From NCBI GenBank assembly GCA_016795245.1, contig JAEUIA010000097.1, forward strand, positions 20,267 through 84,266: a DNA stretch of 64,000 nucleotides. The letters are read 5' to 3'. Source of the stretch: Planctomycetota bacterium (GTDB lineage Bacteria; Planctomycetota; UBA1135; GCA-002686595). A program made the position numbers and the translations under genes. A model generated the notes under the pieces. The model worked only from the letters and a program-made list of their open reading frames with translations. It ran no database searches and was not told where the DNA came from. The stretch's first letter is position 1, and every line of letters starts with the position of its first letter. This document shows, one piece after another, positions 8,634 through 45,269 of the stretch.

Positions 8634-10245
8634 TCCGCGCCAGGCCGTGTGCGTCGTGCGTGCGCTGAGCGTCGTGCTCGGGCGCGGTGCGGGCGCCGTG
8701 CGTGCGCTCGATCGCGTCGATCTCGTGATCCGGCCCGGCGAACGTGTGGCGGTGGTCGGTGAATCGGGATCGGGCAAGACGACGCTGGCGCTGGCGATCG
8801 CGCGTCTGCTCGGTGAGCGGGCACAGTGCGAGGGCACGATCCATTTCAACGGCCGCGACATCAGTTCCCTGAATCGAGAGGAAGCCCGTGCGCTGCGCGG
8901 GGCCTCGATCGGCGTCGTGTTCCAGGACCCGCATGGCGCGCTGAACCCGTTGATGCGCATCGAAGATCAAGTGGCGGAGGCGTGGACGGCGCACGGACGT
9001 CTCGCTCGCGCGGAGGCTCTCGAGCGCGCACGCGCGGCGCTCGCGCGCGTCGGTCTGGATGTCGAGCGCCACGCACGCGCCTATCCGCACGAACTCTCGG
9101 GCGGCATGCGCCAGCGCGTTCAGATCGCGATGGCGCTGGCGCACGGTCCGGCGCTCTTGATCCTGGACGAGCCCACGACGGCGCTCGACACGGTCACACA
9201 AAAGCGCATCTTCGACCTGATCGACGAGCTGCGCGCCGCGCAGGAGTTCGCCGTGTTGTTGATCACGCACGATCTGCCGCTGGCAGTCGAGCGTGCAGAC
9301 CGCATCGTCGCGCTCGAGCGTGGACGCGTGCTGTCCGATCGTTCCGCCGCGGATGTCGAAATCGAATCCCCGCGCGCACCGCGACCTCAGGGCATGGAGG
9401 CGCGGCGGAATCAGCCGCGCCTGGACGTCTTGAACCTGGGAGTGTCGTACTCGGTGAGGAGCGGCTGGTTCAGCCGCGCGCGCGGTCCGCGCATCATCGA
9501 CGGCGTGTCGCTCGCCATCGCGCCCGGTGAGGCGCTGGCGCTCGTCGGGAATTCGGGTTCGGGCAAGACCACGCTCGTGCGCGCGATCCTGCGGCTCGTC
9601 GAAGCCGATGATGGCGCGATCTTCTACCGTCGCCAGGACGCCGGTGATCCGATCGACGTGCGCGCTCTCTCCGCGCCGGATCTGCGCGCGGTGCGGCCCG
9701 ACTTCGGCATCGTGTTCCAGGACCCTGTCGCCAGCCTGGATCCGCGGCGTCGCGCGCGACAGGTGTTGCGCGACGCGCATCTCGTGCGCGCGGACGACAC
9801 ACGCGATCTGTCGGCGCGGATCGCACGCTCCTTGGACGAAGTCGGGCTGGAGCGACATCACCTGGACCGTTTTCCGCACCAGTTGTCCGGCGGCGAGGCG
9901 CAGCGTCTGTGTCTCGCGCGCGCGCTGGCGACGGATCCGCGTGTGCTCGTGCTCGACGAGGCGCTCGCGAGCCTGGACCCCGCGACGCGCAAGCGCATCC
10001 TGGACGTGCTGGAGCGCCTGCGCGCGGAGCGCGGCCTCGCGTGTCTATTGGTGACGCACGACCTGGGTTCGGTCGCGGCGTTCGCGGACCGCGTGGCGGT
10101 CTTGGTCGCGGGACGCATCGTCGAGAGCGGCCCGAACGAGCGCGTGTTCACCGAACCTCGGCACGCCGCGACGCGCGCGCTGCTCGACGCGCGCCCCGGG
10201 TCAGGTCAGCGCCAGAGAAAAGTCGCGCCGCAGGATCTCGCGTAG
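8623..10245 (+). CDS. ABC transporter ATP-binding protein with two fused ATPase domains (YejF-like)
   Basis: There are two Walker A sites (GESGSGKTT and GNSGSGKTT) and two signature motifs (LSGGMRQR and LSGGEAQR). The ATG at 8623 (MNADPRQ...) overlaps the permease stop. The track start at 8491 lies inside the permease gene. Confidence 0.9.
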   Translation: MNADPRQAVCVVRALSVVLGRGAGAVRALDRVDLVIRPGERVAVVGESGSGKTTLALAIARLLGERAQCEGTIHFNGRDISSLNREEARALRGASIGVVFQDPHGALNPLMRIEDQVAEAWTAHGRLARAEALERARAALARVGLDVERHARAYPHELSGGMRQRVQIAMALAHGPALLILDEPTTALDTVTQKRIFDLIDELRAAQEFAVLLITHDLPLAVERADRIVALERGRVLSDRSAADVEIESPRAPRPQGMEARRNQPRLDVLNLGVSYSVRSGWFSRARGPRIIDGVSLAIAPGEALALVGNSGSGKTTLVRAILRLVEADDGAIFYRRQDAGDPIDVRALSAPDLRAVRPDFGIVFQDPVASLDPRRRARQVLRDAHLVRADDTRDLSARIARSLDEVGLERHHLDRFPHQLSGGEAQRLCLARALATDPRVLVLDEALASLDPATRKRILDVLERLRAERGLACLLVTHDLGSVAAFADRVAVLVAGRIVESGPNERVFTEPRHAATRALLDARPGSGQRQRKVAPQDLA

Positions 10246-10941
10246 CTCTCCGAAGTCCTCGACCGTGTAGTCAGGCCGGATCGACTTGCCTTCGAGTCCG
10301 TGTCGCGCAGCACGCTTCGCCCACACCGTGATCATGCCGATCGAGTGCGGCGGCGCGATGTCGTGTTCGGGGCTGTCACCGACGTACATGACTTCATTCG
10401 CCGGCAACTGCAGATCGCGCAGCGCGGTCTCGTAGAGCTTGGGATTCGGTTTGCTGATCCCGATCTGGTCCGAGATGAAGACCGCGCGCGGGTCCAGGAA
10501 CGGGACGAGTCCTAGGCGAACGAGCTTCTCGGCCTGCTTGACCGTCCAGCCGTGGGTGATGATGCCGACTCGCATCCCGACCTTCTGCAAGTCTCCGAGC
10601 AGCGGTCGCACGTCGTCGAAGGGCCTCAACTCACGGAACTTCGTGTCGTGGTACGCCGCGACACCCGCCGCCACGATCAACGCCGTGTTGCGGCGCACCA
10701 AGGACGGCGGTCGCAGGCGTTGCAGGAGCTTGTCGTAGTGGTGTTCGTAGTTCGAAGAGAACTCGGCCAGCACTTCGTCGAGTTCGCGGAGCACGACTTC
10801 CTCGGGGAGTTCGAGCCCCGCGTCGATCATGGCACGCACGGCGTTGACGCGCGCTTGCCGCGCGAACGCGGTCGTGGAGAAGAGCGTGTCGTCGATGTCG
10901 AACAGGATGGCCGAGAGTTTCGTCACGCTTTCATTGTCCAA
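10201..10941 (-). CDS. HAD-superfamily hydrolase (subfamily IA-like)
   Basis: HAD motif I is near the N-terminus (LFDIDDTLF) and a late motif is MYVGDSPEHDI. The track start is TTG at 10941; GTG at 10926 is an alternative. Its 3' end overlaps the convergent ATPase gene by 45 bp. Confidence 0.8.
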   Translation of the reverse strand: MDNESVTKLSAILFDIDDTLFSTTAFARQARVNAVRAMIDAGLELPEEVVLRELDEVLAEFSSNYEHHYDKLLQRLRPPSLVRRNTALIVAAGVAAYHDTKFRELRPFDDVRPLLGDLQKVGMRVGIITHGWTVKQAEKLVRLGLVPFLDPRAVFISDQIGISKPNPKLYETALRDLQLPANEVMYVGDSPEHDIAPPHSIGMITVWAKRAARHGLEGKSIRPDYTVEDFGELREILRRDFSLALT

Positions 10942-11081: not shown

Positions 11082-13226
11082 ATGCAAAGCAATCACGAAT
11101 ACGCACGCACGGCGCCGCGGACAGGCGGCGTGGCACTCTGCGCGCGGGCGCTCTTGCCCGCCATTTTGGCCCTGGTCGCGGGCTGCGGCGGGGGAGGCTC
11201 GAAATCCTCACCGGCGGCGGCCACGCTCCCGGATTTCAGCGCTGCGGTGTTCACGAACCCCAGCGTCGTCGACCATCCGCTGTGGAATTTCCCTGTCGAC
11301 ACGGCCGCGACCTTCGCCTCGGCGAGCGGGTCCGAGATCGAGACCATCGTGGTCGAGCGTTTGCCCGGCACGCGCACGGTCATGGGGCTCGCCTGCATTC
11401 GCGTCCGTGATCGCGTGTTCAGCGACGGACTCTTGATCGAGGACACGGAGGATTGGTACGCGCAGGACGATGAGGGCAACGTCTGGTACATGGGCGAGGC
11501 GGTCGTCGACTACGAGTACGACGACGACGGCAATCTGATCGGCACGGCAACAGACGGATCCTGGGAAGCGGGTCTGGATCCGCTGGCCACGGGTGCGGTC
11601 GCGAGGCCCGGCTTCGCGATGAGGGCGAGTCCCGCGGTCGGCGATTTCTACTACCAGGAGTTCTACGAGGACGAAGCCGAGGACATCGGCCGAGTCGTGG
11701 AACTGAACGTGCCGATCACCCTCGCCGACGGCAGCCTGCACGCGTGCGTCAAGATCCGCGAGACGAGTTCGATCGACGCCACTGCGAACGAGTTCAAGTA
11801 CTTCGCTCCCGGCATCGGCCTGGTGCGCGAGGAGAAGATCGGCTCGGCCGAATCCCTCGAATTTCGCGGTCGATTCCTGATGAACGCGACCTCGCGCCCG
11901 GTGTTCGCGGCGGGGGACTTCAGCGCACCGAGCGTGATCACGCACCCCTTGTTCCCGTCCGTGGAGGAGCAGGCCTTGGTGTATTCGTTGTCGTCCGAGG
12001 ACGAATCAGAGACGATCGTCGTCGAGCGCCTGGCCGGGACGCGTGTCGTCTTGGGCATCGCTTGCGCGCGCGTGCGTGATCGCGTGTACAAGGACGGTCT
12101 TCTGATCGAAGACACCGAAGACTGGTTCGCTCAAGACGACGCCGGCAACGTCTGGTACATGGGCGAAGCCGTCGACAACTACGAGTACGACGAAGACGGC
12201 GTGTTGATCGGCGTCGACAACGACGGTTCGTGGGAAGCCGGACTCGACGTCGCCGGCACCGGGATGACGGCGCTGCCCGGCTATCAGCTTCCGGCGAATC
12301 CCGTGGTCGGCACGGCTTACTACCAGGAGTTCTACGTCGGCGAAGCCGAGGACATGGGGCTCACGGTTGCGACCGGCGTCACGGTGACCCTGCCCGACGG
12401 ACGCGTGTTCACCGGCTGCGTGCGCACGCTCGATTGGAATCCGCTGGAGCCGGATGGACTGGAGTACAAGCTCCACGCGCCCGGTCTGGGTCTAGTGCGC
12501 GAGGAAGCGCTGCACGAAGCGGAATCGGCCTCGCACGTCGGCACTTTCGACCGCAGCACGGCCTCGATTCCGAATTTCGGCGCGGCCGTGTTCACGACCC
12601 CGACGACGATCGACCATCCGCTGCAACCTTTCCCGCCCGCCGCGACCTGGGAGTACGAGGCCGAGACCGAGGACGGACTGGAGACGATCCTGATCGAAGT
12701 CCTGCCGCAGACGCGCGTCGTCATGGGGGTGATGTGCGCCGTCGTGCGCGACCGCGTGTTCCTCGAAGGCGTGATCATCGAAGACACCGAAGACTGGTTC
12801 GCGCAGGACGACGCGGGCAATGTCTGGTACTTCGGCGAGTTCGTCGTGAACTACGAGTACGACGACGACGGCGTGCTCCTGGGCACGAACAACGACGGTT
12901 CGTGGGAGGCAGGTCTGGACGTCGCCGGTGCCGGTTCGACGGCGCAACCCGGGATTCTGATGTGGGCGACGCCCGTTGCGGGGACGTCGTACTACCAGGA
13001 GTTCTACGCCGGCGAGGCGGAGGACATGGCCTTCATCGTCGCGACCGGCGTGACGGTGACGACGCCCGGCGGCGAGACCTACACGGGCTGCCTGCAGACC
13101 TTGGATTGGAATCCGCTGGAGCCGGACGGGCTCGAGTACAAGTTCTACGCGCCCGGCATCGGCTTCGTGTACGAGACGAAGTTGCACGAAGAAGAGGATT
13201 TGGAGCTCACCGACACGTCGCTCTGA
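11082..13226 (+). CDS. Lipoprotein built from three ~224-aa tandem internal repeats, unknown function
   Basis: Lipobox LVAGC. The block (I/V)IEDTEDW(Y/F)AQDD.GNVWY.GE...YEYD.DG.L.G...DGSWEAGLD ... YYQEFY..EAED recurs three times, with nucleotide anchors near 11430, 12100 and 12775. Confidence 0.8.
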   Translation: MQSNHEYARTAPRTGGVALCARALLPAILALVAGCGGGGSKSSPAAATLPDFSAAVFTNPSVVDHPLWNFPVDTAATFASASGSEIETIVVERLPGTRTVMGLACIRVRDRVFSDGLLIEDTEDWYAQDDEGNVWYMGEAVVDYEYDDDGNLIGTATDGSWEAGLDPLATGAVARPGFAMRASPAVGDFYYQEFYEDEAEDIGRVVELNVPITLADGSLHACVKIRETSSIDATANEFKYFAPGIGLVREEKIGSAESLEFRGRFLMNATSRPVFAAGDFSAPSVITHPLFPSVEEQALVYSLSSEDESETIVVERLAGTRVVLGIACARVRDRVYKDGLLIEDTEDWFAQDDAGNVWYMGEAVDNYEYDEDGVLIGVDNDGSWEAGLDVAGTGMTALPGYQLPANPVVGTAYYQEFYVGEAEDMGLTVATGVTVTLPDGRVFTGCVRTLDWNPLEPDGLEYKLHAPGLGLVREEALHEAESASHVGTFDRSTASIPNFGAAVFTTPTTIDHPLQPFPPAATWEYEAETEDGLETILIEVLPQTRVVMGVMCAVVRDRVFLEGVIIEDTEDWFAQDDAGNVWYFGEFVVNYEYDDDGVLLGTNNDGSWEAGLDVAGAGSTAQPGILMWATPVAGTSYYQEFYAGEAEDMAFIVATGVTVTTPGGETYTGCLQTLDWNPLEPDGLEYKFYAPGIGFVYETKLHEEEDLELTDTSL

Positions 13227-13395: not shown

Positions 13396-14979
13396 TCACG
13401 GCAGGACCGTGACGCGCACCCAGTTCTTCGTCAACTGACGCGGGTAGTTGAAGAGGCCCTGGAAGTAGAGCGTGGTTCCGATCTGCGACGTACCGTTCGG
13501 CAGGGTGAAGTTCACGCTGCTGGCTCCGCTCGTGTTCGTCGCCGGCGCAGGCACGGCCTGCATTCCCGTGCGGTTCAGGTAGAGCGTGCCGATGGCGCCG
13601 AAGTTGATCGGCGTCGCGAGGGCCGAGGTCGACCACAGGAGGGTCGACGGTACCGAGTCGCCTTGTCCCTGCATGACGAAGTTGATCGACGAACCGGGGC
13701 TCGGAATACCCGCTGCGCGGATGTCCTGCGGTTCGAAGGCGTAGAAGCGGATCGATCCGCCGCCGGCGTACAGGTTGGCGTGCACCGCCTTGGCCGCGAC
13801 CGCGACGCGCTCGCCGTCACCACTGATGTCGACGTCGAACACCGAACCCGTCAGGTTGTGCAGCGCGACGGGAGCGCTTTGGTTGCTCCGGTAGAGGCGC
13901 ACTTCCGGGCAGACGTCGCCGCCGTCACCCCACAAGCCCACCACGAAACGCGATCCGTCGCGCGACATGGCCATGTCCGCGGCCACGTTTTGCAACGTGC
14001 CGGTTCCGACGGCCTCGTCGGTCATCGTGATCGTCTTGGTGGCCACGTCGATGCACTCGACGCGCACGTGGTTGTTCGTGTCGTAGCCGTTGAACGTGTA
14101 CGCGACTTTCGAGCCGTCACCGGCGATGGCGATGCGCGCGCAGACGTAGGAACCCGGCAGGTTGCGCGTGTACGTTTTCGTGTAACCGCCGGACGCGTTG
14201 CGTTCCCAGATATCCATGTAATTGAAGCCGCCGTTCGCGATCACGCGCCCGTCGCCGGACATCGCGTGCGCCGAGTCGAGCGACGTCATGAGCACGTAGA
14301 GCGCGATGTTCGTGTGCGTGTTCGTGTCCCAGACGATGAACGACGTGCCGGACGCCAGGTAGAGCTTCGAACCGTCGCTCGAGAGGCTGAAGCCACGCAC
14401 TCCCATGGCGAAGTTGTCGATCGTGCCGCTCCACTGCGGAGTGCCGGAACTCGGCCCGAAGACACGGACGTCGAGCTTGCTGGTCAACGTCTGGTACGAG
14501 ACCGCGACGATGCGCGAGCCGTCGTCCGACACCGCGACCTTGGCGTTGCCCGCCGTCGTGCCCGGGAACGTGTACGTCCAATCGGGCGTGCTCGAAGCCG
14601 AGCGGTACTTGGACACCACCGTCTGCTTCGTGCTCTGGTTCGAGTTCAGCACGAGCTGGTGGATCGAGACGTGCACGTCCGCCATCTCCGCCGAGTCGAC
14701 GAGCGAGTACGCGCCCTCGATCGGCGTCGCGTTCGTCCACACCGGCGTCGCGGGATTCGTGTCGAACCCCGACAGCAACTCGGCGTGGTCTTGACCGAAC
14801 TCGATCTCCGTGAACACCTGCGTGCCCTGCGCGCCGATCGACACGCAGCGGCCGCTCCAGCCGGCGCCGTTGTCACCGCGCACCCACAACGCTCCGCCGG
14901 AGTTCACCTGCGCGTCGGCGGTGGCCGCGAACACACAGAGCGAAAAACCCGCGATCCAATACCCCATTGACTTGGTCAT
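13396..14979 (-). CDS. Secreted beta-propeller protein (WD40-like/TolB-like repeats) with a distinct C-terminal module
   Basis: Blade-like motifs recur: VSDDGSRIVAVS, LSSDGSKLYLAS, MSGDGRVIANG, IAGDGSKVAYT, MSRDGSRFVVG, ISGDGERVAVAA. The ATG at 14979 gives the signal peptide MTKSMGYWIAGFSLCVFAATADAQ, preceded by GAGGG. The track start at 14994 is GTG. Confidence 0.75.
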   Translation of the reverse strand: MTKSMGYWIAGFSLCVFAATADAQVNSGGALWVRGDNGAGWSGRCVSIGAQGTQVFTEIEFGQDHAELLSGFDTNPATPVWTNATPIEGAYSLVDSAEMADVHVSIHQLVLNSNQSTKQTVVSKYRSASSTPDWTYTFPGTTAGNAKVAVSDDGSRIVAVSYQTLTSKLDVRVFGPSSGTPQWSGTIDNFAMGVRGFSLSSDGSKLYLASGTSFIVWDTNTHTNIALYVLMTSLDSAHAMSGDGRVIANGGFNYMDIWERNASGGYTKTYTRNLPGSYVCARIAIAGDGSKVAYTFNGYDTNNHVRVECIDVATKTITMTDEAVGTGTLQNVAADMAMSRDGSRFVVGLWGDGGDVCPEVRLYRSNQSAPVALHNLTGSVFDVDISGDGERVAVAAKAVHANLYAGGGSIRFYAFEPQDIRAAGIPSPGSSINFVMQGQGDSVPSTLLWSTSALATPINFGAIGTLYLNRTGMQAVPAPATNTSGASSVNFTLPNGTSQIGTTLYFQGLFNYPRQLTKNWVRVTVLP

Positions 14980-15395
14980 GTGCCCTCTTCCCACTCGATG
15001 TCTGCCTGATTCCTGCCTCTGAAGTCAAGCAAGCCATCGGTGGATGGGTGGCTGGTTCCTGAGACCGAACGTGGGATTTCAGCGAAGTTGCAATTCTCCA
15101 CATGGCCGGACCCGGCGCACGGGGGGAGGGCAGAATTTTCTACCGCGGGGGATACTGGCGCCCCTCGCTGGTCGCCCAGCCTGCTACCCCAAGGGCGCGC
15201 TCCCGGGCAGGGTCGGCGAATCCTGAGAGGGCCTCCAGACGCTGCCAAGGGGGGCGCTTCGAAGAGGACCAGCGGAGGGAGCCAGGATCACCTGGAGGAG
15301 GTCTGGGCGCCTGGGAGTGCCCGGGATGAAAGCAGCCGGCGGAGACCTGCGCGTCCGCGCAAGTCTCCGCCGGCCGGAGTCGGACCGTCCGCGCC

Positions 15396-18026
15396 TCAGC
15401 GCGCTTCGATCTTCTTCAATTCGTCGCGCACATCGGTGATGCGGGCGCGGATCAGGATCATCAGCGACTTGTTCTCGTCGCTGTAGCCCTCTTGCTTGAA
15501 GAAGAACCCGATGATCGGGATCTTCGCGATCCACGGGACTTCCGCGCGACGCTCGATGTTGCGGATGCTCGACAAGCCGCCGAGCATGATCGAGCCGCCG
15601 TCGGGGATGACCGCCGACGTGAAGACCGACTGCACTTGCAGCTCGGGGAGCTGGAACTGGATCGGCGACGTGTTGCCGCCGAGCGTCGAGCTGAAGTCGC
15701 GCAGCGCCACGACCTTGGCCACCGTCGGCTGGATCTCCAGCGTCAGGTACTTGCGGTTGTGGTGGATCGTCGGGCGCACGTCGAGCACGACGCCTTCGTT
15801 CAGGACGTTGATCTGCGGATCGGCGACGGCCTGGAACTGGGCGACTTCGACGTCGAAGTCCTGGATGTACGCGCGCTGGTTGATGACCGTGACGTACGCG
15901 CGCTGCGTGTTGTGCACGGACAGGACCTGGTCGTTGACGAGCTCGATGTTCGAGCTCTTCTCGACCGCGCGCAGGATCGCGCTCAGGTTGAGCTGATCGA
16001 GGAAGCCGAGCTGGAACGTAGCGCCGCCGATGGTGGAGAGCGCATTACCCAGGTTCGAGCCGAAGAAGTTCTGCGTCGTGGCACGGAAATCACCGTCCTG
16101 GCCGTCGTCGTAGAAGATACCGGCCGAAGGGTGACCGGCCGAGTTCTGGCCGGCCGTGCCCGTGCCGCCGTTGTCGAGGCCGCGTGAGGCCTGGTCTTCG
16201 AGGCCGTTCGTGACATCCGTGACGTCGATGTTGTCGAGGCCGCGGAAGTCGACGCCGATCTCCTGGATCCAGTTGGAAGCGACCGACAGGAACTTGGACT
16301 CGATCGTGACCAGCGACGAAGAGAAGCGGCGCAGGTCGTTCAGGAACTCGCGCACTTGGAGCTGCACTTCAGGCGTGTGGTTGATCAGGATGAAGCCCTC
16401 GGCGGCTTCGATCGAGACGCCCGCGTCCTGCCACGTGCCGACGGCGACGTTTTCCTGGATCAAGGTCGACAGGTCGGAGGGCTCGATGATCTTCGGCTTC
16501 TCGCCGATGCCGCCGAACGGGCCGCCGCCGTCGTCGTCCTGCATCTGATCGATGAGGCGCAGACGGTCGATGCGCGGACCCATGAAGTCGGTCAGGCCGA
16601 ACACGAGGTCCTGGACGTCGTGGTTGTAGATGATCGGCTTGTCGCGCGCCTTTTCCTTGGTCGTGATCAAGACCGCGTCGTGACGCACGGTCCAGGTGAC
16701 CTGGTCACCGGCCATCTTCGTGATCAGGTTCAAGACCTGTTCGGCGGTGAGACGGTTGTCGAAGTTGAAGTTGAAGACCGTCGCGTTGCTCTTGGCCGCG
16801 GCGTCGGCGGCCGGATCGACCACCAGCGGCAGGCCGGACTGGACGCGCAGGCCGTCGATCACGCGGATCAGGCTCTCTTCGTCCTTGGCGGCGACGTTCT
16901 GCACCGGCGTGTTGCGCAGGAGATCGCGCAGCGCGCGCTCCGACTCGCTGACCTTCTGCGAGAGGTCGATGCCGCGACGGCGCGAACGCAGGTCGGTGAT
17001 CTCGCTCCAGCGCTCGGCCGAGGGGAGCGTCAACTCCGGCGTCCAGGGGATCTCGAGTTCCTTCATCGACTCGCGCCAGCGGCGGTACTGCTCGTTCTTC
17101 TTCTCGACGTAGCTCGCCTTGACGGCCTTGCGACCGGCGCGGAACGACGCTTCGCGGATGTCCTTCGCCTGTTCGTTGCGCGGATCCTTGTCGAGTGCTT
17201 GCTGCGCGAAGTCCTCGGCGTCTTCGTACTCGCCGGCCTGGAACGCGCCGATCGCGCGGTCGAGGATGCCGTTCACTTGCGCGGTCTTGCGGTCGCGCAG
17301 CGTGGCTTCTTTCTCGCGCAGGGCTTCCGTGGCCTTGCGGCGCGCGGCCTCTTCGCTGGCCTTCTCGGCGCTCAAGCGCTGATCCTTGACGGTCTGGAGC
17401 ATCGACTTGGCTTCCGTGTCGAGGCCCTGCCAGTTGACCGAGTAGGGGGCGAAGCGCACCAGATTGTTCGCGATCTCCAGTTCGGTGATCGCGCCCTGGT
17501 AATCGTTGCGCGCGACGAGCACACGCGACTTCGCCAGCGCGTCTTGCACATCGGCCTTCATCTGCTGGACCTTCAGCGCGTACTGCTGCTCCATGTCCTG
17601 CGTGATGGTGCGCGCAGTGCCCGGGTCACCCCCGCGCATGCGGATCGATTCGGCGCGCAGGTCCTTGGCGCGCAGGTTCATGGGCTCGAGATCGAGCGCC
17701 GCAGCGGCTTCCAGTTCGGCCTCGGCGAACATCAAGTTCTTGAGGTAGGTCTCGGCGTTCTGGATGTGCTGCTGGATCAAGAAGGCCTTGCGCTGTTCAG
17801 CCAGCGAGAGCTTCTCGACATCCTGAGCGAGTTGCGAGCCGGGGCGGACGGTCCCGCCCGCGTCTTGCGGAGTGGCTTCGGCCGTGAGCGCGGCAGCAGA
17901 GGCCTTGGCCTCGGCGCTGTCCGCGCTCGCTTCGATCGCGTCGCCGTTCGAGCGGCAGGCCGCGAGGGCCAGGACGAGGACGAGGGGCAGGGCGTTCCCT
18001 GACGTCACGTAGCGGTGGTTCGACAT
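15396..18026 (-). CDS. Secretin-family outer-membrane lipoprotein (GspD/PilQ superfamily) with a TPR-like N-terminal region
   Basis: 876 aa, lipobox LALAAC. The C-terminal secretin signature is GGSIMLGGLSSIRNIERRAEVPWIAKIPIIGFFFKQEGYSDENKSLMILIRARI. The N-terminal ~300 aa are helical and TPR-like. Confidence 0.8.
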   Translation of the reverse strand: MSNHRYVTSGNALPLVLVLALAACRSNGDAIEASADSAEAKASAAALTAEATPQDAGGTVRPGSQLAQDVEKLSLAEQRKAFLIQQHIQNAETYLKNLMFAEAELEAAAALDLEPMNLRAKDLRAESIRMRGGDPGTARTITQDMEQQYALKVQQMKADVQDALAKSRVLVARNDYQGAITELEIANNLVRFAPYSVNWQGLDTEAKSMLQTVKDQRLSAEKASEEAARRKATEALREKEATLRDRKTAQVNGILDRAIGAFQAGEYEDAEDFAQQALDKDPRNEQAKDIREASFRAGRKAVKASYVEKKNEQYRRWRESMKELEIPWTPELTLPSAERWSEITDLRSRRRGIDLSQKVSESERALRDLLRNTPVQNVAAKDEESLIRVIDGLRVQSGLPLVVDPAADAAAKSNATVFNFNFDNRLTAEQVLNLITKMAGDQVTWTVRHDAVLITTKEKARDKPIIYNHDVQDLVFGLTDFMGPRIDRLRLIDQMQDDDGGGPFGGIGEKPKIIEPSDLSTLIQENVAVGTWQDAGVSIEAAEGFILINHTPEVQLQVREFLNDLRRFSSSLVTIESKFLSVASNWIQEIGVDFRGLDNIDVTDVTNGLEDQASRGLDNGGTGTAGQNSAGHPSAGIFYDDGQDGDFRATTQNFFGSNLGNALSTIGGATFQLGFLDQLNLSAILRAVEKSSNIELVNDQVLSVHNTQRAYVTVINQRAYIQDFDVEVAQFQAVADPQINVLNEGVVLDVRPTIHHNRKYLTLEIQPTVAKVVALRDFSSTLGGNTSPIQFQLPELQVQSVFTSAVIPDGGSIMLGGLSSIRNIERRAEVPWIAKIPIIGFFFKQEGYSDENKSLMILIRARITDVRDELKKIEAR

Positions 18027-18074: not shown

Positions 18075-20729
18075 TCAGAGTTTGCTCGTGGGACGCGTCG
18101 TCGGTCCGAGCTGAGCGGGCGTAGGTTCGTGTTCTTGCGGGATCACGATCTCGGCCTTCAGCAGGATCAAGAGCTTGCGGTTGGACACGTACTGGCCCTT
18201 GCGCTCGAAGAAGAACGAGACGATCGGGATCTTGTTCAGGATCGGGACGCCGGAGCGTTGGTCCTGCTTGTCGGACACGCGCAGGCCGCCGAGCATCACC
18301 GTGCCGCCGTCGGGCATCGGGATCGAGGTGCGCACGCGCTGGATCTCGACTTCGGGCAGCTGGATCGTGACCGAGTTCTGCGAACCTAGCGTCGTGACGA
18401 CCTCGCGGATCGGCCGGCGCAGGTTGGCGATCGTCGGGCGCAGTTCGAGCGTGATGAAGCGGCGATCGGCCGAGACGACCGGGCGCACGTCGAGCACGAC
18501 ACCGTCCTGGACGACGTTCACGATCGGGTTCGCGATCGAGGCCGCCTGCGCGATTTCGACGTCGAAATCCTGCACGTAGGCGACCTGGTTCAGGACCGAC
18601 AGGTTGCCGCGCGCGGTGTTGTGCACCGTGATGCGCGGGCTGGTCACCAGTTCCACGCGCTCGGACTTCGAGACCGCGCGCAAGATCAGCTGGAGCTGCA
18701 GGTCGTTCAGGTAGGTCCATTGGAACGAGAGGCCGCCCGAGTTCTGGACCACGTTCGAGTCGCCCAACGACGAGTCGTAGAGCTGCTCGACGCGCGCGCG
18801 CAGGTTGTCCTTGCCGCCGCGGTCGTAGAAGGCACCGAGGTCGGTGTTCTGGCCGATCTCGTTGCCGAGGTCCTGCTGCGTCGAGGCGTCACCGAAGTCG
18901 TTGAAGAACGCGTTCGTGCCGAGGCCCGGTTGACCGAGGCCGCGGAAATCGACGCCGATGTCTTCCAGGAAGTTGTCCTCGACTTTGAGGAAGCGCGCCT
19001 GGATGTCGACCATGATCCCGGTCGCTTCGCGCAAATCGTCGAGCAGTTTGAGGATCTGCTCGTGCACTTCCGGCGTCTGGTGCACGACCATCGTGCCGTT
19101 GGTGATGCGCAGCGAGTTCTGCGGGTCGTCGGCCCACGACTGCGGGGCGACGTTGTTGCGGATCAGATTGTCGAGTCCCGAGTCGGTGATGACGTTCGAT
19201 TCGCGCTCCGCGAGGTCTTCGTCCGCGAGTTGCACGCCGCCCGAGGGCGCCACGTTCATCTCGCGACCAGGGAAATCGGGGATCGGGTGGATCAAGTCGC
19301 GCACTTCGTAGTTGCGCAGGACTTGTCCGCCCTTCGTCTCATCCTTCGTGACGAACTTGACGACGCCGTCTTCGATCTTCCAGAACAGGTTCTCCTTGGT
19401 CTCGGAGATGAGGTCGAGCACGTTGCGCACGCTGCGCTCGTTCAAGTCGAGCTTGACCGTGCGCTGTTCGTCGTCGAGGTCGCTCTTGACCTTCGGGCTG
19501 AGCATGAAGTTCAGGCCCGTGATCTGCTGCAGGAAGGTGGCGATCTCGTCCAGCGACGAACCGTTGCCGTCCGTGCCGACGAACTTCGGCGTGAACTGCA
19601 CGGAATCGAGGCGGTCGAGCACCATCTGCTTCTCGGCCGACGTGCCGTGGTCGAGCGCGGCGAATTCCTGCGGCTTGCGCTGACTGACTTCCTTCCAACG
19701 CTTGGGATTGAAGTCGATCGTGGTCGTCTGGATGACGTTGGAGGTTTCGAGTTCCTCCATCGTGCGGATCCACTGCTCGCGGTAGTTGCGACGGTTCTCG
19801 CTGTCGGCCTTCGAGTGACGCGCGTCGCGCGCGATGCCGCGCAATTCGGTCGCGGCCTTGTTGCCCGGATCCTCGAGCAGGATCTGCGCGCACAACTGCT
19901 CGCACTTGGTGTAGTTCTCGCTCAGGAACGCGCCGTTGGCGTCGGAGTAGAGCGTGCGCAGCTTGTTCTCGCGGTACTGCGCTTCTTCGCGCGCCTTGCG
20001 GTCGCGCGCTTCCGCGGCGGCGGCCATCGCGCGTTGCTCTCCGGAAGCGCGGGCCTCGTCGGCCATGCGCAGCGCCATCTCGAGTTCGCCCGCGGCGACC
20101 TTCTGGTCGAGCGAGTCGGTCGCGATCAGCGGGTTGTAGCGCAGGATCATCTCGGCCTGGCGGAACTGCTCGATCGCGCGGTCGTAGTCGCCCGAGGCGA
20201 GCGCACTCTTGCCGCGCTGACGGGCGTCTTCGGCGGCCATGCGCGCCTGCGAGCGGCGCACCATCGCCTGCTCGGTCGCGTCCACGAGGAACGACGACGC
20301 ACCGGCGTACTTGTCGCCCATGAGCGCCTGGACCTTGCGCATCTTGTCGCGCGCGACCGTGCTGGTCGGGTCGATGTCCAGGGCGGCCGAGTACGCCGTC
20401 AGGGCGCCGGCCAGGTCGGCTTGATCCAAGAGGCGGTCGCCCTCCTGGATCGAGGCCTGCGACAGGAACGCACCCTGCTGGCGCAAGAGTTCGAGGCGCG
20501 CGGCGTCGCCGCTCAGGCTGCCCGGGTCTTGCGGTGCCATGGGACTCGCGGCTTCGACTACCGCGGAATCCTGGGGCGCCTCGAGCGGGTCCTGACGCGC
20601 TTCGAGCGGACCGGCGAGCGTCGTCGCGGCCTTGCCTTCGCGCGTCGGTTCGCTCGCGGGGTCGTGGGCGGTCTTGCAGGCGCTGGGAAGGGCCGCGAGG
20701 AGCGGCACAAGGATCAACCTCAACTGCAT
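18075..20729 (-). CDS. Secretin-family outer-membrane lipoprotein, paralogue of the downstream gene
   Basis: The ATG at 20729 gives MQLRLILVPLLAALPSAC (lipobox). The C-terminus GGTVMLGGLRVSDKQDQRSGVPILNKIPIVSFFFERKGQYVSNRKLLILLKAEI matches the secretin signature. There is a 48-bp gap to the next secretin gene. Confidence 0.8.
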   Translation of the reverse strand: MQLRLILVPLLAALPSACKTAHDPASEPTREGKAATTLAGPLEARQDPLEAPQDSAVVEAASPMAPQDPGSLSGDAARLELLRQQGAFLSQASIQEGDRLLDQADLAGALTAYSAALDIDPTSTVARDKMRKVQALMGDKYAGASSFLVDATEQAMVRRSQARMAAEDARQRGKSALASGDYDRAIEQFRQAEMILRYNPLIATDSLDQKVAAGELEMALRMADEARASGEQRAMAAAAEARDRKAREEAQYRENKLRTLYSDANGAFLSENYTKCEQLCAQILLEDPGNKAATELRGIARDARHSKADSENRRNYREQWIRTMEELETSNVIQTTTIDFNPKRWKEVSQRKPQEFAALDHGTSAEKQMVLDRLDSVQFTPKFVGTDGNGSSLDEIATFLQQITGLNFMLSPKVKSDLDDEQRTVKLDLNERSVRNVLDLISETKENLFWKIEDGVVKFVTKDETKGGQVLRNYEVRDLIHPIPDFPGREMNVAPSGGVQLADEDLAERESNVITDSGLDNLIRNNVAPQSWADDPQNSLRITNGTMVVHQTPEVHEQILKLLDDLREATGIMVDIQARFLKVEDNFLEDIGVDFRGLGQPGLGTNAFFNDFGDASTQQDLGNEIGQNTDLGAFYDRGGKDNLRARVEQLYDSSLGDSNVVQNSGGLSFQWTYLNDLQLQLILRAVSKSERVELVTSPRITVHNTARGNLSVLNQVAYVQDFDVEIAQAASIANPIVNVVQDGVVLDVRPVVSADRRFITLELRPTIANLRRPIREVVTTLGSQNSVTIQLPEVEIQRVRTSIPMPDGGTVMLGGLRVSDKQDQRSGVPILNKIPIVSFFFERKGQYVSNRKLLILLKAEIVIPQEHEPTPAQLGPTTRPTSKL

Positions 20730-21670
20730 GGGATCACAGACCTTCCTGATGGTCGCGCGCGGGGGCGCGGAAGAAGCTAGAGACAAACGAGGTGTTCGAG
20801 CACGCGCTTCCGAAACACGGCACTCGCGCCGCGCCGGAATTCGCTGAACAGAACACGATCGCGCGCGTGCGCGACCCAGAGGGGGGATTGGAGATCAACG
20901 GTGGGCAGGGGGGGGACGATCGATGAGCAGGCTTCGGGGCCGGACCCCGAGGAAGCTGTCCTCATCGCGAGAAACCAGGCCGATTCGATTCAGAAGAGTT
21001 GGTACCGGAAGCCTCCGCAAAGTGGCGTCGCGCGGTCGTCGGAGGCACCCGCGCGGAGTGCGTCCCGAGCGTTGGTTCCCACGCGTGGAACAGAGCGGAA
21101 CTTCCTGATGTGGGCCCGGTTGGGGGCAGAGCGGTCCGGGAGGATAGCGAGCACTCCGAAGTGGGTCAACGCTTCGAAACGTTCGCTGAACAAGCCGGAA
21201 CTCTTCCACGAGTCGCAGGAGCGGGACGCGGAAGAGCAGGGGCCGACTACCGCGGGCGGCTCTCCCGGTTACCTGCTTCCTACCGCACTCTCTGCGTGTT
21301 GAGCCGCACACCCGCGCACTCGACCCGCTCTTGGGAAGGACACTGGCTCCTCTCGCTGGTCTCGCGCGGATCGACCCCTCCGCACCGGCCCAGGAACAGG
21401 CTGCATCGGATCGGGTACCTGTGCGCAAACGCCAGGAACGCGGCTTCGGTAGCCACGACCAGCGGAGACAGCCACTACCCCTTGGAATCTCAGTCCACAT
21501 ACGGGGCGTGATTCCCGGATGGGTAGGGGAACGAGGCGAACAGCCTGCCTACGGAGCCCGCGGCCGCAGCTTTGGAGGTGAGGCGAAGCGTTGCGGCGCC
21601 GCACGCGAGACGCCGGTTCTCGCGATGCAAGTTCCTACATATTCAGCTTTGTGCAGCGAATCTTCGACGT

Positions 21671-40742: not shown

Positions 40743-41663
40743 TCAGGGACCCCACTGAACCATGACACCGTTCGTGGTGTTGAAGTTCTGAAGAATCGCC
40801 GTGCAGAACGCCGGGAACGTGCGGTACCAGCCCTGGTAGTAGTACGAGCCGGGCGTGACTCCGCCGCTGACGCTGATCGGGAGATCACCCGGCTCGGGCA
40901 GGCCGGCCTGACCGTTGCACGTGGCCTTGATCGCGAGACGCGTGATCGTGCCCGTGACGCACAAAAGTCCGTTGCCGAATTGGATGCCGGCACCGCCCGC
41001 CATCGGAGCCGTGCCTTGGAAGAACAACACGAACGTGCTCGCCGGCAGCCGCAGCGCGTGCAACACGAACCTGTCGTTGGAGATGCTCAGCGGCAGTCCG
41101 GGGATGCCATAGCCCACCAGGCGCCCGCCGATTCCCGGCGCGTGCAAGCAACCCTCGTTGTCACCCGCAGCACTGTTGTTCACGCACGGGCAAGCCGTGC
41201 CACTGCCGTCGCCGTAGCAGAACGTGGGTTGATTGGGGAACGTGTCGATCTGTCCGCGGATCTCTCCGCCGGGAAAGGCTGTCGAGTGGACGTTGAAGTA
41301 GCTGTTCCCCGCGAGCACCGCCGCTTGCTGCGCCAACGGGACCGCCCAGGCGCCGCACTTCAGCGCACCCAAAGCTTGCGCGTGCTGCACGCCGGAGTTC
41401 ACGCCCGGACCGGAGAACCCGTGGATGTGCGCGGCCGTCTCGCCTGCGCTCAAGTTCTGGTAGACCTCGCGGTACGTGAGCGTGCTCGTAGCGAGGTCGA
41501 ACGCGCAGAATCCGAGGCCGGTCGCCGGCGAGAGGTTCGCCGGCACCTCCTGCAGACCGTCGAGGCGCGCGAGCATGGGGATCGTTTGCGCCGAGACGAC
41601 GGGCGCGAACGGCGCTGCACAGAGCAGCAGGGCGAGAAGGGGACGCACGGATGCATGGAGCAT
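40743..41663 (-). CDS. Secreted CHRD-domain protein with a Cys-rich C-terminal module (paralogue 1)
   Basis: The ATG at 41663 gives the signal peptide MLHASVRPLLALLLCAAPFAPVVSAQ. CHRD hallmarks are LQEVP, AAHIHGFSGPGVNSGV and YFNVHSTAFPGGEIRGQI. The C-terminal module runs FCYGDGSGTACPCVNNSAAGDNEGC...YYQGWYRTFPAFC...NTTNGVMVQWGP. Confidence 0.85.
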   Translation of the reverse strand: MLHASVRPLLALLLCAAPFAPVVSAQTIPMLARLDGLQEVPANLSPATGLGFCAFDLATSTLTYREVYQNLSAGETAAHIHGFSGPGVNSGVQHAQALGALKCGAWAVPLAQQAAVLAGNSYFNVHSTAFPGGEIRGQIDTFPNQPTFCYGDGSGTACPCVNNSAAGDNEGCLHAPGIGGRLVGYGIPGLPLSISNDRFVLHALRLPASTFVLFFQGTAPMAGGAGIQFGNGLLCVTGTITRLAIKATCNGQAGLPEPGDLPISVSGGVTPGSYYYQGWYRTFPAFCTAILQNFNTTNGVMVQWGP

Positions 41664-41883
41664 GGGAGAAACTCGCGAGAGCAGGTGGCAGAGAGCGCGA
41701 CGAAATGTCGACTCACAGTGCGACTCGCGCGTGCATGGTAGATCTGCGCACGAAAAGCGGGGAGTGGGGCGGTTGGAATGCGGCGAGGCCGGCATACGTC
41801 ATGGGGACGTGGGCCGACCTCGCGGGGCGGGGGGGGGCGAAGGGCTGGGGGTCCCCGTGCGTCAGGGTTGTGGGGTGTTCCCC

Positions 41884-41982: not shown

Positions 41983-42909
41983 TCAGGGCACCCAGGTCAC
42001 AGCCACACCGTTGGTGAGATTGTCGAACGCCACCGCACCCGAGCAGAACGGCGGATTCACGCGGAACCAGGCCTGGTAGTAGTACGTGCCCGGCGCAACT
42101 GCGCCCGCGAAGCTGATCGTGGCATCGCCCGGTTCGGGCAGTCCGGCTTGGCCATTGCACGTCGCCTTGACGTTCAAGCGCGAGAGCGCACCGCTCACGC
42201 ACAAGAGTCCTCCGCCGAACGGAATTCCGTTGCCTCCGGCCATCGGCGCTGTGCCCTGGAAGAACAGGACGAAGGTGCTCGCCGGCAAGCGCAACGCGTG
42301 CAACACGAGATTGTCGTTGGCGATGCTCGGATTCGGCGCCGACGGCGGACCCGCGTAGCCGACCAGGCGACCGCCCATTCCCGGAGCATGGAGGCAACCC
42401 TCCATATCGCCGACTGCGCTGAAATTCGCGCACGGGCACGCGGCTGCGCTGCCGTCGCCGTAGCAGAAAGTCACTTGATCCGGCGCGAGGTTGATCTGTC
42501 CGCGGATCTCACCGCCGGGGAACGCGGTGCTGTGAACGTTGAAGTACGAGTTGCCCGGCAAAACCTGCAACGTTTGCGCGGCCGTCATGCCCCACACGCC
42601 GCACTTGAGCGTGCCCAAGGCCTGGGCGTGCAAAACGCCTGCGTTGAAACCCGGCGTCGCGAATCCGTGGATGTGCGCCGCGGTCTCGGCTGAACTCAGG
42701 TTCTGGTAGACCTCGCGATACGTGAGCGTGTTCGCGGCGACATCGATCGCGACGAAACCGAGGCCCGTCGCGGGCGTTGTGGTCGACGGAACTTCCTGCG
42801 CGCCATTCAAGCGCGCGAGCCGCGGAACCGTCTGCGCAGACGTGGTCTGCGTGAGCGACGCGGCACAGACGAGGAGCGTGAGAACGGAACGGACGGATGC
42901 ATGGACCAT
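41983..42909 (-). CDS. Secreted CHRD-domain protein with a Cys-rich C-terminal module (paralogue 2)
   Basis: The ATG at 42909 gives MVHASVRSVLTLLVCAASLTQTTSAQ. Motifs are AAHIHGFATPGFNAGV, YFNVHSTAFPGGEIRGQI and FCYGDGSAAACPCANFSAVGDMEGC...YYQAWFRVNPPFC...NLTNGVAVTWVP. Confidence 0.85.
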   Translation of the reverse strand: MVHASVRSVLTLLVCAASLTQTTSAQTVPRLARLNGAQEVPSTTTPATGLGFVAIDVAANTLTYREVYQNLSSAETAAHIHGFATPGFNAGVLHAQALGTLKCGVWGMTAAQTLQVLPGNSYFNVHSTAFPGGEIRGQINLAPDQVTFCYGDGSAAACPCANFSAVGDMEGCLHAPGMGGRLVGYAGPPSAPNPSIANDNLVLHALRLPASTFVLFFQGTAPMAGGNGIPFGGGLLCVSGALSRLNVKATCNGQAGLPEPGDATISFAGAVAPGTYYYQAWFRVNPPFCSGAVAFDNLTNGVAVTWVP

Positions 42910-43168
42910 GGGGGAAGGCCTCGCGGGCGCGGATTTCTGGAGTGCGACGATGTGTCGTCTCACAGCGCGACTACAGGCACATGGTAGTGCGAGGTGGTCT
43001 TCTTGGGGATGGAGGGTGGAAATGCAGCAAGGCCGACCGCGTCACGGGGAGGGACGGGCCGGCCTTGCGGGGGAGCGCCAGTTGGAGCAGCTGAGTCCGG
43101 AGGTCGTCCTTGCAAAGCTCGAGTCGGCCAGTCTGCCGCCTCGGCCTGGATCCCTCCACGCGGCCTGC

Positions 43169-44092
43169 TCAGGGCGCCCAGGTCACGCGCACCCCGTTGG
43201 TCAGGTTGTAGTTCGCGGGGACCGACGAGCAGAAGCCCGGAAAGGTGCGGAACCAGCCCTGGTACAGGAAAGTGCCCGGCGTCACCGCGCCGCTCACGCT
43301 GATCGGGAGATCGCCCGGCTCGGGGAGACCGGCCTGTCCGTTGCACGTCGCCTTGACGTTGAGGCGCGCGAGGTTGCCGGAGAGACACAAGAGGCCGTGG
43401 CCGAACTGCAGACCTGCACCTCCAGCCATCGGCACCGTGCCTTGGAAGAACAGCACGAACGTGTTCGACGGCAGACGCAGCGCGTGCAAGACGAGTCGGT
43501 CGTTGGAGATGCTCGGATTCGGCGCCGGACCGGCGTAGCCGACCAATCGACCTCCCACGCCAGGTGCGTGCAGGCAACCTTCGTTGTCACCGACCGCGCT
43601 GTTGTTGCCGCACGGGCAGGGCGTGCCGGTGCCGTCGCCGAAGCAGAACTCGGTTTGATCGGGTGCGAGGTCGATCTGTCCGCGGATCTCGCCGCCCGGG
43701 TTGCCTACTGTGTGGATGTTGAAGTAGGCCAGGCCGCCCATGACGTTGGCCAGTTGTACAGGCGTCAACGCCCACACACCGCACTTCGGTTGCCCGAGTG
43801 CTTGGGCGAGTTGGACTCCGGCGTTGACGCCGGCCGGGGCGAAGCCGTGGATGTGCGCCGCCGTCTCAGCCGAGCCCAAGGCCTGGAACACTTCGCGGTA
43901 CGCCATCGCACTCGCGAGCGTGTCGATCGCGACGAAGCCAAGCCCGTTTCCGAGCGTGACGACACCCGGGACTTCCTGCGCGCCGTCGAGTCGCGCGAGT
44001 CGCGGAAGCGTTGTCTGAGCCGGCGCGAACGTCGCGAGAGTCACGGCGCCGAGCAACGAATACAGCATGGAACGCAGCATGGAATGCATCAT
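43169..44092 (-). CDS. Secreted CHRD-domain protein with a Cys-rich C-terminal module (paralogue 3)
   Basis: The signal peptide is MMHSMLRSMLYSLLGAVTLATFAPAQ. Motifs are AAHIHGFAPAGVNAGV, YFNIHTVGNPGGEIRGQI and FCFGDGTGTPCPCGNNSAVGDNEGC...LYQGWFRTFPGFC...NLTNGVRVTWAP. Confidence 0.88.
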   Translation of the reverse strand: MMHSMLRSMLYSLLGAVTLATFAPAQTTLPRLARLDGAQEVPGVVTLGNGLGFVAIDTLASAMAYREVFQALGSAETAAHIHGFAPAGVNAGVQLAQALGQPKCGVWALTPVQLANVMGGLAYFNIHTVGNPGGEIRGQIDLAPDQTEFCFGDGTGTPCPCGNNSAVGDNEGCLHAPGVGGRLVGYAGPAPNPSISNDRLVLHALRLPSNTFVLFFQGTVPMAGGAGLQFGHGLLCLSGNLARLNVKATCNGQAGLPEPGDLPISVSGAVTPGTFLYQGWFRTFPGFCSSVPANYNLTNGVRVTWAP

Positions 44093-44339: not shown

Positions 44340-45269
44340 TCAGGGCGCCCAGACGACGCGAATCGCGTTCGTGAGATTGAAGTTGCCCGGGATCGCGGCG
44401 CAGAAGCCCGGGTTCGTACGGAACCAGCCTTGGTAGAGGTAGGCCCCCGGCACGACACCGCCGCTGACGCTGATCGGGAGATCACCCGGCTCGGGCAGAC
44501 CGACCTGTCCATTGCAGGTGGCCTTGATGTTGAGGCGCGTGATGTTGCCCGTCAGACACAAGAGTCCGCTGCCGAATTGAATTCCATTGCCGCCGTTCAT
44601 CGGCACCGTCCCTTGGAAGAACAGGACGAAGGTGCTGGCCGGCAGACGCAAGGCGTGCAACACGAAGTTGTCGTTCGAGATGCTCGGAGTCGGAGCCAGC
44701 GGCGGCCCGGCGTAGCCGACGAGTCGGCCGCCCATGCCCGGCGCGTGCAAGCAACCCTCGTTGTCACCCACCGCGCTGTTGTTGCCGCACGGGCACGGCG
44801 TACCGCTGCCGTCGCCGAAGCAGAACTCGCCCTGGTCAGGCCGCAGATCGATCTGTCCGCGGATCTCACCGCCGGGGTTCGTCGTCGTGTGGATGTTGAA
44901 GTACGCGAAGCCGCCGATCACGTTCGACTGCTGCACCGGTGTCATCGCCCACACGCCGCACTTCGGTTGCCCGAGCGCTTGGGCGTGCACCACTCCCGCG
45001 TTCACGCCGGCCGGCGCGAAACCGTGAATGTGGGCGGCCGTCTCGATACCCGTCAGGTTCTGGAAGAGCTCGCGGTAGGTGAGCGTATTGGTCAGCGTGT
45101 CGACCGCGACGAAGCCGAGGCCGCTCCCCGGAGTCAGGACGATCGGGACCTCTTGCGCACCACTGAGGCGCGCGAGCAACGGAACGGTGGTCTGGGCCGG
45201 CGCGGCGGTCGCGAGTGTCACGAGGCCGAGCAGCGCGAACAGGCCGGAACGCAGAGTGGGTTGAGTCAT
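44340..45269 (-). CDS. Secreted CHRD-domain protein with a Cys-rich C-terminal module (paralogue 4)
   Basis: The signal peptide is MTQPTLRSGLFALLGLVTLATAAPAQ. Motifs are AAHIHGFAPAGVNAGV, YFNIHTTTNPGGEIRGQI and FCFGDGSGTPCPCGNNSAVGDNEGC...LYQGWFRTNPGFC...NLTNAIRVVWAP. Confidence 0.88.
   Translation of the reverse strand: MTQPTLRSGLFALLGLVTLATAAPAQTTVPLLARLSGAQEVPIVLTPGSGLGFVAVDTLTNTLTYRELFQNLTGIETAAHIHGFAPAGVNAGVVHAQALGQPKCGVWAMTPVQQSNVIGGFAYFNIHTTTNPGGEIRGQIDLRPDQGEFCFGDGSGTPCPCGNNSAVGDNEGCLHAPGMGGRLVGYAGPPLAPTPSISNDNFVLHALRLPASTFVLFFQGTVPMNGGNGIQFGSGLLCLTGNITRLNIKATCNGQVGLPEPGDLPISVSGGVVPGAYLYQGWFRTNPGFCAAIPGNFNLTNAIRVVWAP

Follow-up and report, generated by a model that had tools for sequence, protein, structure and literature searches.

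The question raised by this locus is whether five secreted proteins encoded close to one another in a planctomycete genome, one of them with a beta-propeller and four with a CHRD domain, end in the same kind of domain, and, if so, whether this domain is connected with the two secretin genes that lie beside the propeller gene. The window, that is, the whole stretch of DNA that was analysed, has a length of 64,000 nucleotides and belongs to contig JAEUIA010000097.1 of a member of the Planctomycetota. According to a preliminary description of its sequence, the five proteins, grouped within 32 kb, share a terminal module that could represent either a common fold used for surface anchoring or a recognition tag for a dedicated export or sorting route.

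The propeller gene is located on the reverse strand at positions 13396..14979. The list of open reading frames contains a longer frame, 13396-14994 (-), which opens with a GTG, comprises 532 codons and has a translation that ends in ...NGTSQIGTTLYFQGLFNYPRQLTKNWVRVTVLP; the ATG at 14979, which yields a protein of 527 aa, is the likely start, given that the database copy and most of the orthologues measure 526-528 aa. From this ATG onwards, the protein is composed of a signal-peptide-like N-terminus (MTKSMGYWIAGFSLCVFAATADA, then Q), a WD40-type beta-propeller of around 400 residues and a C-terminal tail of 113 residues. The propeller part retrieves the WD40 repeat protein 2ymu in a profile search against the PDB (E 2.8e-16), while all its propeller matches in Pfam fall below the cut-offs. 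The tail, encoded at 13399..13737 on the reverse strand (residues 420-532 of the 532-codon frame), contains no cysteine and is predicted by AlphaFold2 to fold into an Ig-like beta-sandwich of 10 strands (pLDDT 96.5). The span 13396-13700, to which the preliminary description referred, corresponds to the final ~100 codons of this tail and the stop codon. Searching 1.84 billion representative proteins yielded 565 relatives of the propeller tail at E <= 1e-3. Among the best 150 of these 565, the tail lies at most five residues from the C-terminus in 145/149 relatives, and the propeller part is matched in 102 of the 110 full-length proteins. Four full-length paralogues with both propeller and tail are present in the source genome. 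The propeller tail is thus the fixed end of a conserved protein of ~530 residues. Tails of this cysteine-free kind also close a group of four G-rich proteins, and in addition C52 and C86, in the source genome, and the tail profile alone detects them in 27/151 genomes of the phylum, from at least 12 families and with 2-28 copies each, in frames that range from 213 to 2189 aa. Out of 20 cysteine-free copies sampled in other families, 15 are exactly C-terminal and five are internal.

Directly upstream of the propeller gene, and also on the reverse strand, lies a gene for a TPR-secretin of 876 aa (15396..18026; Pfam Secretin 3e-22, plus TPR), next to which a paralogue of 903 aa is encoded on the same strand (18075..20786; Pfam Secretin 1.8e-25; NCBIfam Amuc_1098 family 1.2e-32, below the cut-off). 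The secretin and propeller genes are separated by a gap of ~400 nt, in which a perfect 19-bp hairpin (15334..15375, reverse strand) starts 21 nt past the secretin stop codon. Its predicted folding energy is -49.7 kcal/mol (z -4.5), and none of 200 shuffled sequences was equally stable. This hairpin is a terminator-like or REP-like palindrome and, together with the size of the gap, makes separate transcription of the secretin and propeller genes likely. In each of the 11 orthologous loci whose flanking sequence is long enough, the genes follow one another as secretin-secretin-propeller-HAD hydrolase, at 63-87% identity for the secretins and 48-75% for the propeller proteins. Outside these loci, the propeller paralogues and the deeper orthologues (in genomes G166, G170 and G018) are found away from secretins, and the two secretin genes of the deeper family members are mostly 7-10 kb apart from each other. 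The secretin-propeller gene order is, in consequence, a conserved feature of a shallow clade only.

The four CHRD genes form a single tandem array on the reverse strand, and each of them encodes a signal peptide, followed by a CHRD domain and by a C-terminal part of ~160 residues. The CHRD domain (PF07452) was detected in the four paralogues with 68-79 bits, against a Pfam gathering cut-off of 24.1. Their C-terminal parts are ordinary members of a C-terminal domain family, here referred to as CPC, and were delimited with phmmer. In paralogue 1 (40743-41795), the CPC domain spans 40743..41222 (159 aa plus stop; residues 193-351 of a 351-aa frame); in paralogue 2 (41983-42963), 41983..42468 (161 aa plus stop; residues 192-352 of 352); in paralogue 3 (43169-44092), 43169..43648 (159 aa plus stop); and in paralogue 4 (44340-45269), 44340..44825 (161 aa plus stop; residues 175-335 of 335). 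All of them begin with a cysteine-rich head of the pattern FC.GDG...CPC.N...GC and close with ...Y.YQGW(F/Y)R...C...N.TN...V.W.P. Paralogue 3 finishes in ...GAVTPGTFLYQGWFRTFPGFCSSVPANYNLTNGVRVTWAP, and the alignment shows the same end in the other three. In the AlphaFold2 model of its tail (pLDDT 90.8), the cysteine-rich head of ~30 residues (C..CPC..GC) precedes a beta-sandwich that carries another cysteine pair.

From the perspective of its distribution, the CPC domain is a feature of the whole genome. A profile hidden Markov model, iterated within the source genome from a CHRD tail, collected 137 open frames on 68 contigs of the 4.47-Mb assembly, that is, approximately one carrier per 30 kb. 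The frames range from 69 to 4465 aa, and in 135 of the 137 the domain ends 0-2 residues before the stop codon. In relatives elsewhere, the domain follows passengers such as CHRD, plastocyanin, esterase, FG-GAP and lectin domains, as well as many unannotated ones. A signal-peptide heuristic was positive for 72% of the carriers and for 54% of the controls, and is hence nondiscriminating. Counting the cysteine-free tails as well, about 140-150 proteins of the source genome carry one or the other kind. In the phylum, the CPC tail appears in seven out of 151 genomes, of which four belong to the family of the window and are all many-copy, and three have 1-3 copies that are weak and headless. Within that family, represented by 31 genomes from 30 genera, the number of CPC copies is bimodal, with 57 to >124 copies in 20 genomes and 0-3 in the remaining 11; the highest first-look count of candidates was 701, in a single 9-Mb genome. 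The proposal that the five proteins of the window share a terminal module stands as regards a predicted common fold and, most likely, a common origin, but such a module is not special to this 32-kb stretch. The idea of a local system formed by the five carriers was rejected in view of the density of carriers along the genome and of a CHRD array that arose in tandem; at that density, a fifth carrier located 26 kb away from the array is expected by chance.

The relationship between the propeller tail and the CPC tails is remote. The two share their terminal position, the order of their strands and three motif blocks, whereas the propeller tail, with its 113 residues, lacks any cysteine and the cysteine-rich head, and is ~45 residues shorter. 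In the register given in the preliminary description, the final ~110 residues of the propeller protein align with the final ~125 of each CHRD protein; the sequences quoted there are present, and the three correspondences that it drew are all reproduced by profile-profile alignment with hhalign. With deep profiles, INFGAIGTLYL is paired with LQFG-HGLLCL, GTTLYFQGLF with G-TFLYQGWF, and LTKNWVRVTVLP with L-TNGVRVTWAP, in an alignment that is collinear across 106-111 columns and reaches the final residue of both proteins. Its significance increases from P 0.005 for profiles built from the source genome to P 0.0018 for alignments A2 vs A3 and P 5e-5 for 154 vs 245 tails in global mode; for gap-trimmed deep profiles in local mode, the score is 33.2 (probability 74.5%, P 2.7e-5). 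As controls for this local score, 150 column shuffles gave 10.8 +/- 2.3 (maximum 20.9), 150 shuffles of six-column blocks reached 27.1 at most, and the reversed profile scored 10.5. In global mode, too, none of the 300 shuffles reached the observed score, so that the resemblance noticed initially proves significant when deep profiles are used. Additionally, two tails of the source genome that are members of neither profile act as bridges between the two kinds. One of them, C136_523_2730, matches the propeller-tail profile with 94.7% and the CHRD-type profile with 95.7% probability, and the other, C74_36088_37725, does so with 94.6% and 98.1%, respectively. Both are also retrieved by the deep propeller-tail model from the 39,722 open frames searched (C136 with E 1.5e-3, C74 with E 0.02), and iteration from C136 leads to the whole CPC family (138 matches).

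On the structural side, both AlphaFold2 tail models are beta-sandwiches with an identical strand order, and in the register derived from the sequences 66% of the positions have matching DSSP states, a value that none of 105 shifted controls attained. The putative identity of the two folds is read from the strand order of the models, since Foldseek searches of the PDB with either model return generic Ig-like matches only (antibody domains, LPMOs and adhesin repeats; E > 1e-3, TM <= 0.53). Sequence-profile searches against the PDB gave no match for either tail, and neither kind of tail is matched by any Pfam or NCBIfam model. The sole protein matched by the tail profile over several stretches, P0196, is a Big_9/He_PIG repeat protein and was discarded as a fold-level or repeat artefact.

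Part of this evidence could be expected if the resemblance were due to chance or to convergence, that is, if two unrelated Ig-like sandwiches had arrived at similar strand motifs (G-x-L-x-L, Y-Q and V-x-V-x-x-P). Pairwise BLASTP between propeller and CHRD tails is nonsignificant, with a best E of 0.16 in another register and 2.4 for the C-terminal piece; the 137-member CHRD-type model leaves the propeller frame unmatched even at E <= 10; the direct hhalign probability between the tails varies between 3 and 75% according to profile depth; and the generic Foldseek matches, like the score that a repeat protein such as P0196 also attains, point in the same direction. Nevertheless, this explanation appears unlikely in view of a score above all 300 shuffles in both local and global mode and above the reversed profile, of two independent bridges that match both profiles at 94% or more, of models that agree in strand order and register, and of two domains that come to an end on an equivalent last residue. 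Propeller tail and CHRD tails are thus very probably distant homologues, and constitute an unnamed superfamily of predicted Ig-like beta-sandwich domains with two branches: an older cysteine-free branch of ~110 aa, which is modular and mostly terminal, and a derived CPC branch of ~155 aa, expanded in one family. Common ancestry leaves room for different roles, and the propeller tail could be a working or structural domain involved in the binding of ligands, glycans or the cell wall, in oligomerisation or in capping the propeller, as in enzymes of the galactose oxidase type, whatever the CHRD tails do. Propeller and tail form a constant combination among the best 150 relatives, with which a purely structural and integral tail domain would also agree; five out of the 20 sampled cysteine-free copies are internal; and of the 11 family genomes searched none has a sortase and one has an exosortase, while the tails match no known family of sorting tails. 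Against this, 135/137 and 15/20 copies sit right at the C-terminus, on many unrelated passengers, which is the hallmark of domains for sorting or anchoring rather than of catalytic or binding modules; an expansion to hundreds of copies within one lineage is likewise typical of sorting tags. A working or structural role of the propeller tail is, on balance, the less likely option.

The other alternative is the one suggested by the position of the propeller gene, namely that the tail is a recognition tag for export or sorting via the adjacent TPR-secretins, with the propeller protein as their dedicated substrate or accessory. In its favour, the four-gene order is intact in the 11 orthologous loci whose flanks suffice to judge it, all the sampled tail-bearing genomes except G096 possess the TPR-secretin type, and the cysteine-free tail is restricted to genomes whose secretin is among the most similar to those of the window (all with E <= 1e-127). 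However, while the cysteine-free tail occurs in 27 and the CPC tail in seven of the 151 genomes of the phylum, this secretin type is present in 138 of them, as well as in 30/31 genomes of the family, and is so close to universal that its co-occurrence with the tails is uninformative; their co-distribution follows phylogeny and does not count as independent evidence either. A specific association between carriers and TPR-secretins, as sought on the basis of the preliminary description, is largely absent: the 11 family genomes with 0-3 CPC tails all retain both secretins, and in G096, which is 92% complete, 80 tails were counted but no match to the secretin type. To this are added the gap with its hairpin, the ~137 carriers scattered over 68 contigs and the propeller relatives that are not encoded next to secretins. 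A tag for a route through the neighbouring secretins is, consequently, improbable. The broader version of this idea, in which planctomycetes would possess an outer-membrane route based on the conserved TPR-secretin pair, with the superfamily as its signal for export or retention and the propeller protein with its tail as a dedicated component or first substrate, has an equally slim chance of being correct; under it, the logic of type IX secretion, with Sec export, a C-terminal domain as tag and a motor-driven outer-membrane translocon, would have been rebuilt with secretins.

The explanation that we favour as a whole, and consider likely, is that of one superfamily with two branches, located mostly at the C-terminus of exported planctomycete proteins, where it would function as an envelope module and not as a part of a local system. 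Its extreme C-terminal position, the diversity of its passengers, its lineage-restricted expansion and its compact Ig-like fold make up a signature of targeting or retention, and the domain probably serves to target proteins to the envelope or to retain them. It would be a common device by which proteins, following their export by the Sec pathway, are directed to the envelope or the surface or are kept there. The presence of five carriers within 32 kb would result from a tandem CHRD array in a genome dense in carriers, and the position of one of them beside the secretin pair would reflect the gene order of a shallow clade, without evidence of a relation between tag and channel.

No account of such a planctomycete C-terminal domain was found in the literature or among curated models. 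The new elements are the remote link between the CPC domain and the propeller tail, the older cysteine-free branch with its spread across families, and the bimodal expansion of the CPC domain within one family, together with the negative result on its association with secretins. If the favoured explanation is true, exported proteins of uncultured Planctomycetota bear a large class of C-terminal domains that has no name yet, amounting to ~3% of the open frames in this genome (~137 in 4.47 Mb) and to several hundred first-look candidates in some relatives, and the two tail profiles would allow thousands of 'hypothetical' planctomycete proteins to be annotated as envelope or surface proteins. The shared tail is real, and is a genome-wide and lineage-wide feature, as opposed to a five-gene local system tied to secretins. 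On several occasions, terminal domains of this kind have put researchers on the track of dedicated sorting machineries, as occurred with sortases, exosortases and type IX secretion; we know of no such machinery for the planctomycete tail domain.

Several known systems offer a term of comparison. In galactose oxidase, a propeller is followed by a constant C-terminal Ig-like (E-set) domain 3, and the protein of the window has the same general layout of a beta-propeller and a constant C-terminal beta-sandwich. Nonetheless, its propeller is of the WD40 type, modular relatives of its tail are carried by unrelated proteins, and no sequence relation between the two was found. PEP-CTERM and LPXTG signals, which consist of a short motif, a membrane helix and a basic tail, resemble the planctomycete tails in being C-terminal elements present on many secreted proteins of one genome. 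They differ from them in that the planctomycete tails end in a beta-strand and a proline (...VTVLP or ...VTWAP), with no terminal membrane helix. Moreover, the source genome contains no exosortase, which was found in one out of 11 family genomes, and sortase PF04203 is absent from all 11, with positive controls included in the search.

The closest parallel is that of the C-terminal domain of type IX secretion substrates, with which the logic proposed here would be comparable. The differences are clear in terms of both host and sequence: the phylum is Planctomycetota instead of Bacteroidota, and the type IX tail models TIGR04183 and TIGR04131 gave no NCBIfam match at E <= 1 in the five proteins and 75 family members. 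SprA (PF14349) had no match in the 11 family genomes, but none in the control genomes either, and this search is uninformative. To our knowledge, a cysteine-rich head such as that of the CPC branch does not occur in type IX tails. The organisation of the two is, in turn, similar. The tails of type IX substrates in Bacteroidota are Ig-like beta-sandwiches of ~80-150 residues that form the very end of Sec-exported proteins, behind highly diverse passengers, and they are restricted to certain lineages, in which they reach tens to hundreds of copies per genome (PMC10202324, PMC5445135). The planctomycete tails described here equally combine a terminal beta-sandwich, diverse passengers, a high copy number and a distribution restricted by lineage.

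The TPR-secretin pair directly upstream of the propeller gene (13396-14979, minus strand) is encoded at 15396-18026 and 18075-20786, and in a family-wide comparison both secretin genes are adjacent in the window's own genome and in G162, G004 and G166, while most of the family's remaining genera carry the two on a single contig with a distance of 7-10 kb between them. The adjacency of the two secretin genes is, therefore, a derived state of one subclade. A perfect 19-bp GC-rich hairpin (15334-15375, minus strand; fold energy -49.7 kcal/mol, z -4.5) is located 21 nt past the stop codon of the 876-aa secretin gene, and could act as a terminator or belong to a palindromic repeat family.

On the downstream side, an HAD-hydrolase gene immediately follows the propeller gene in all related loci that cover this stretch. 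In the window, the HAD-hydrolase gene (10201-10941) is separated from the propeller gene by a gene on the opposite strand (11082-13226, plus strand) encoding a 714-aa triple-repeat lipoprotein. No relatives of this lipoprotein were found in the related loci compared with the window, and its gene looks like a lineage-specific insertion.

Within the same family, G151 (9.0 Mb) presented 701 candidate CPC-type tails, the cysteine-bearing branch, at first look, of which 124 were scored, suggesting several hundred carriers in this single genome. G096 (3.6 Mb, 92% complete) contains 80 CPC-type tails and is the only one of the 31 genomes of the family with no TPR-secretin match at E <= 1e-20. This absence may reflect either an assembly gap or a true loss; the latter would represent evidence against a dependence of the tails on the secretins.

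Contigs C118, C107, C100 and C129 of the window's genome encode a few paralogous proteins, 443-495 aa long, G-rich and possibly beta-helical, that also terminate in the cysteine-free tail (hhalign probability of 97% against the propeller-tail profile). Outside Planctomycetota, metagenome-assembled genomes from Gemmatimonadota and Candidatus Glassbacteria (loci L018-L021 and L025) encode propeller homologues with 29-34% identity, whose matches begin at residue 18, 37 or 330 and stop at 514 or 515 of 532; the last strand falls outside the alignment, and the tail is mostly present.
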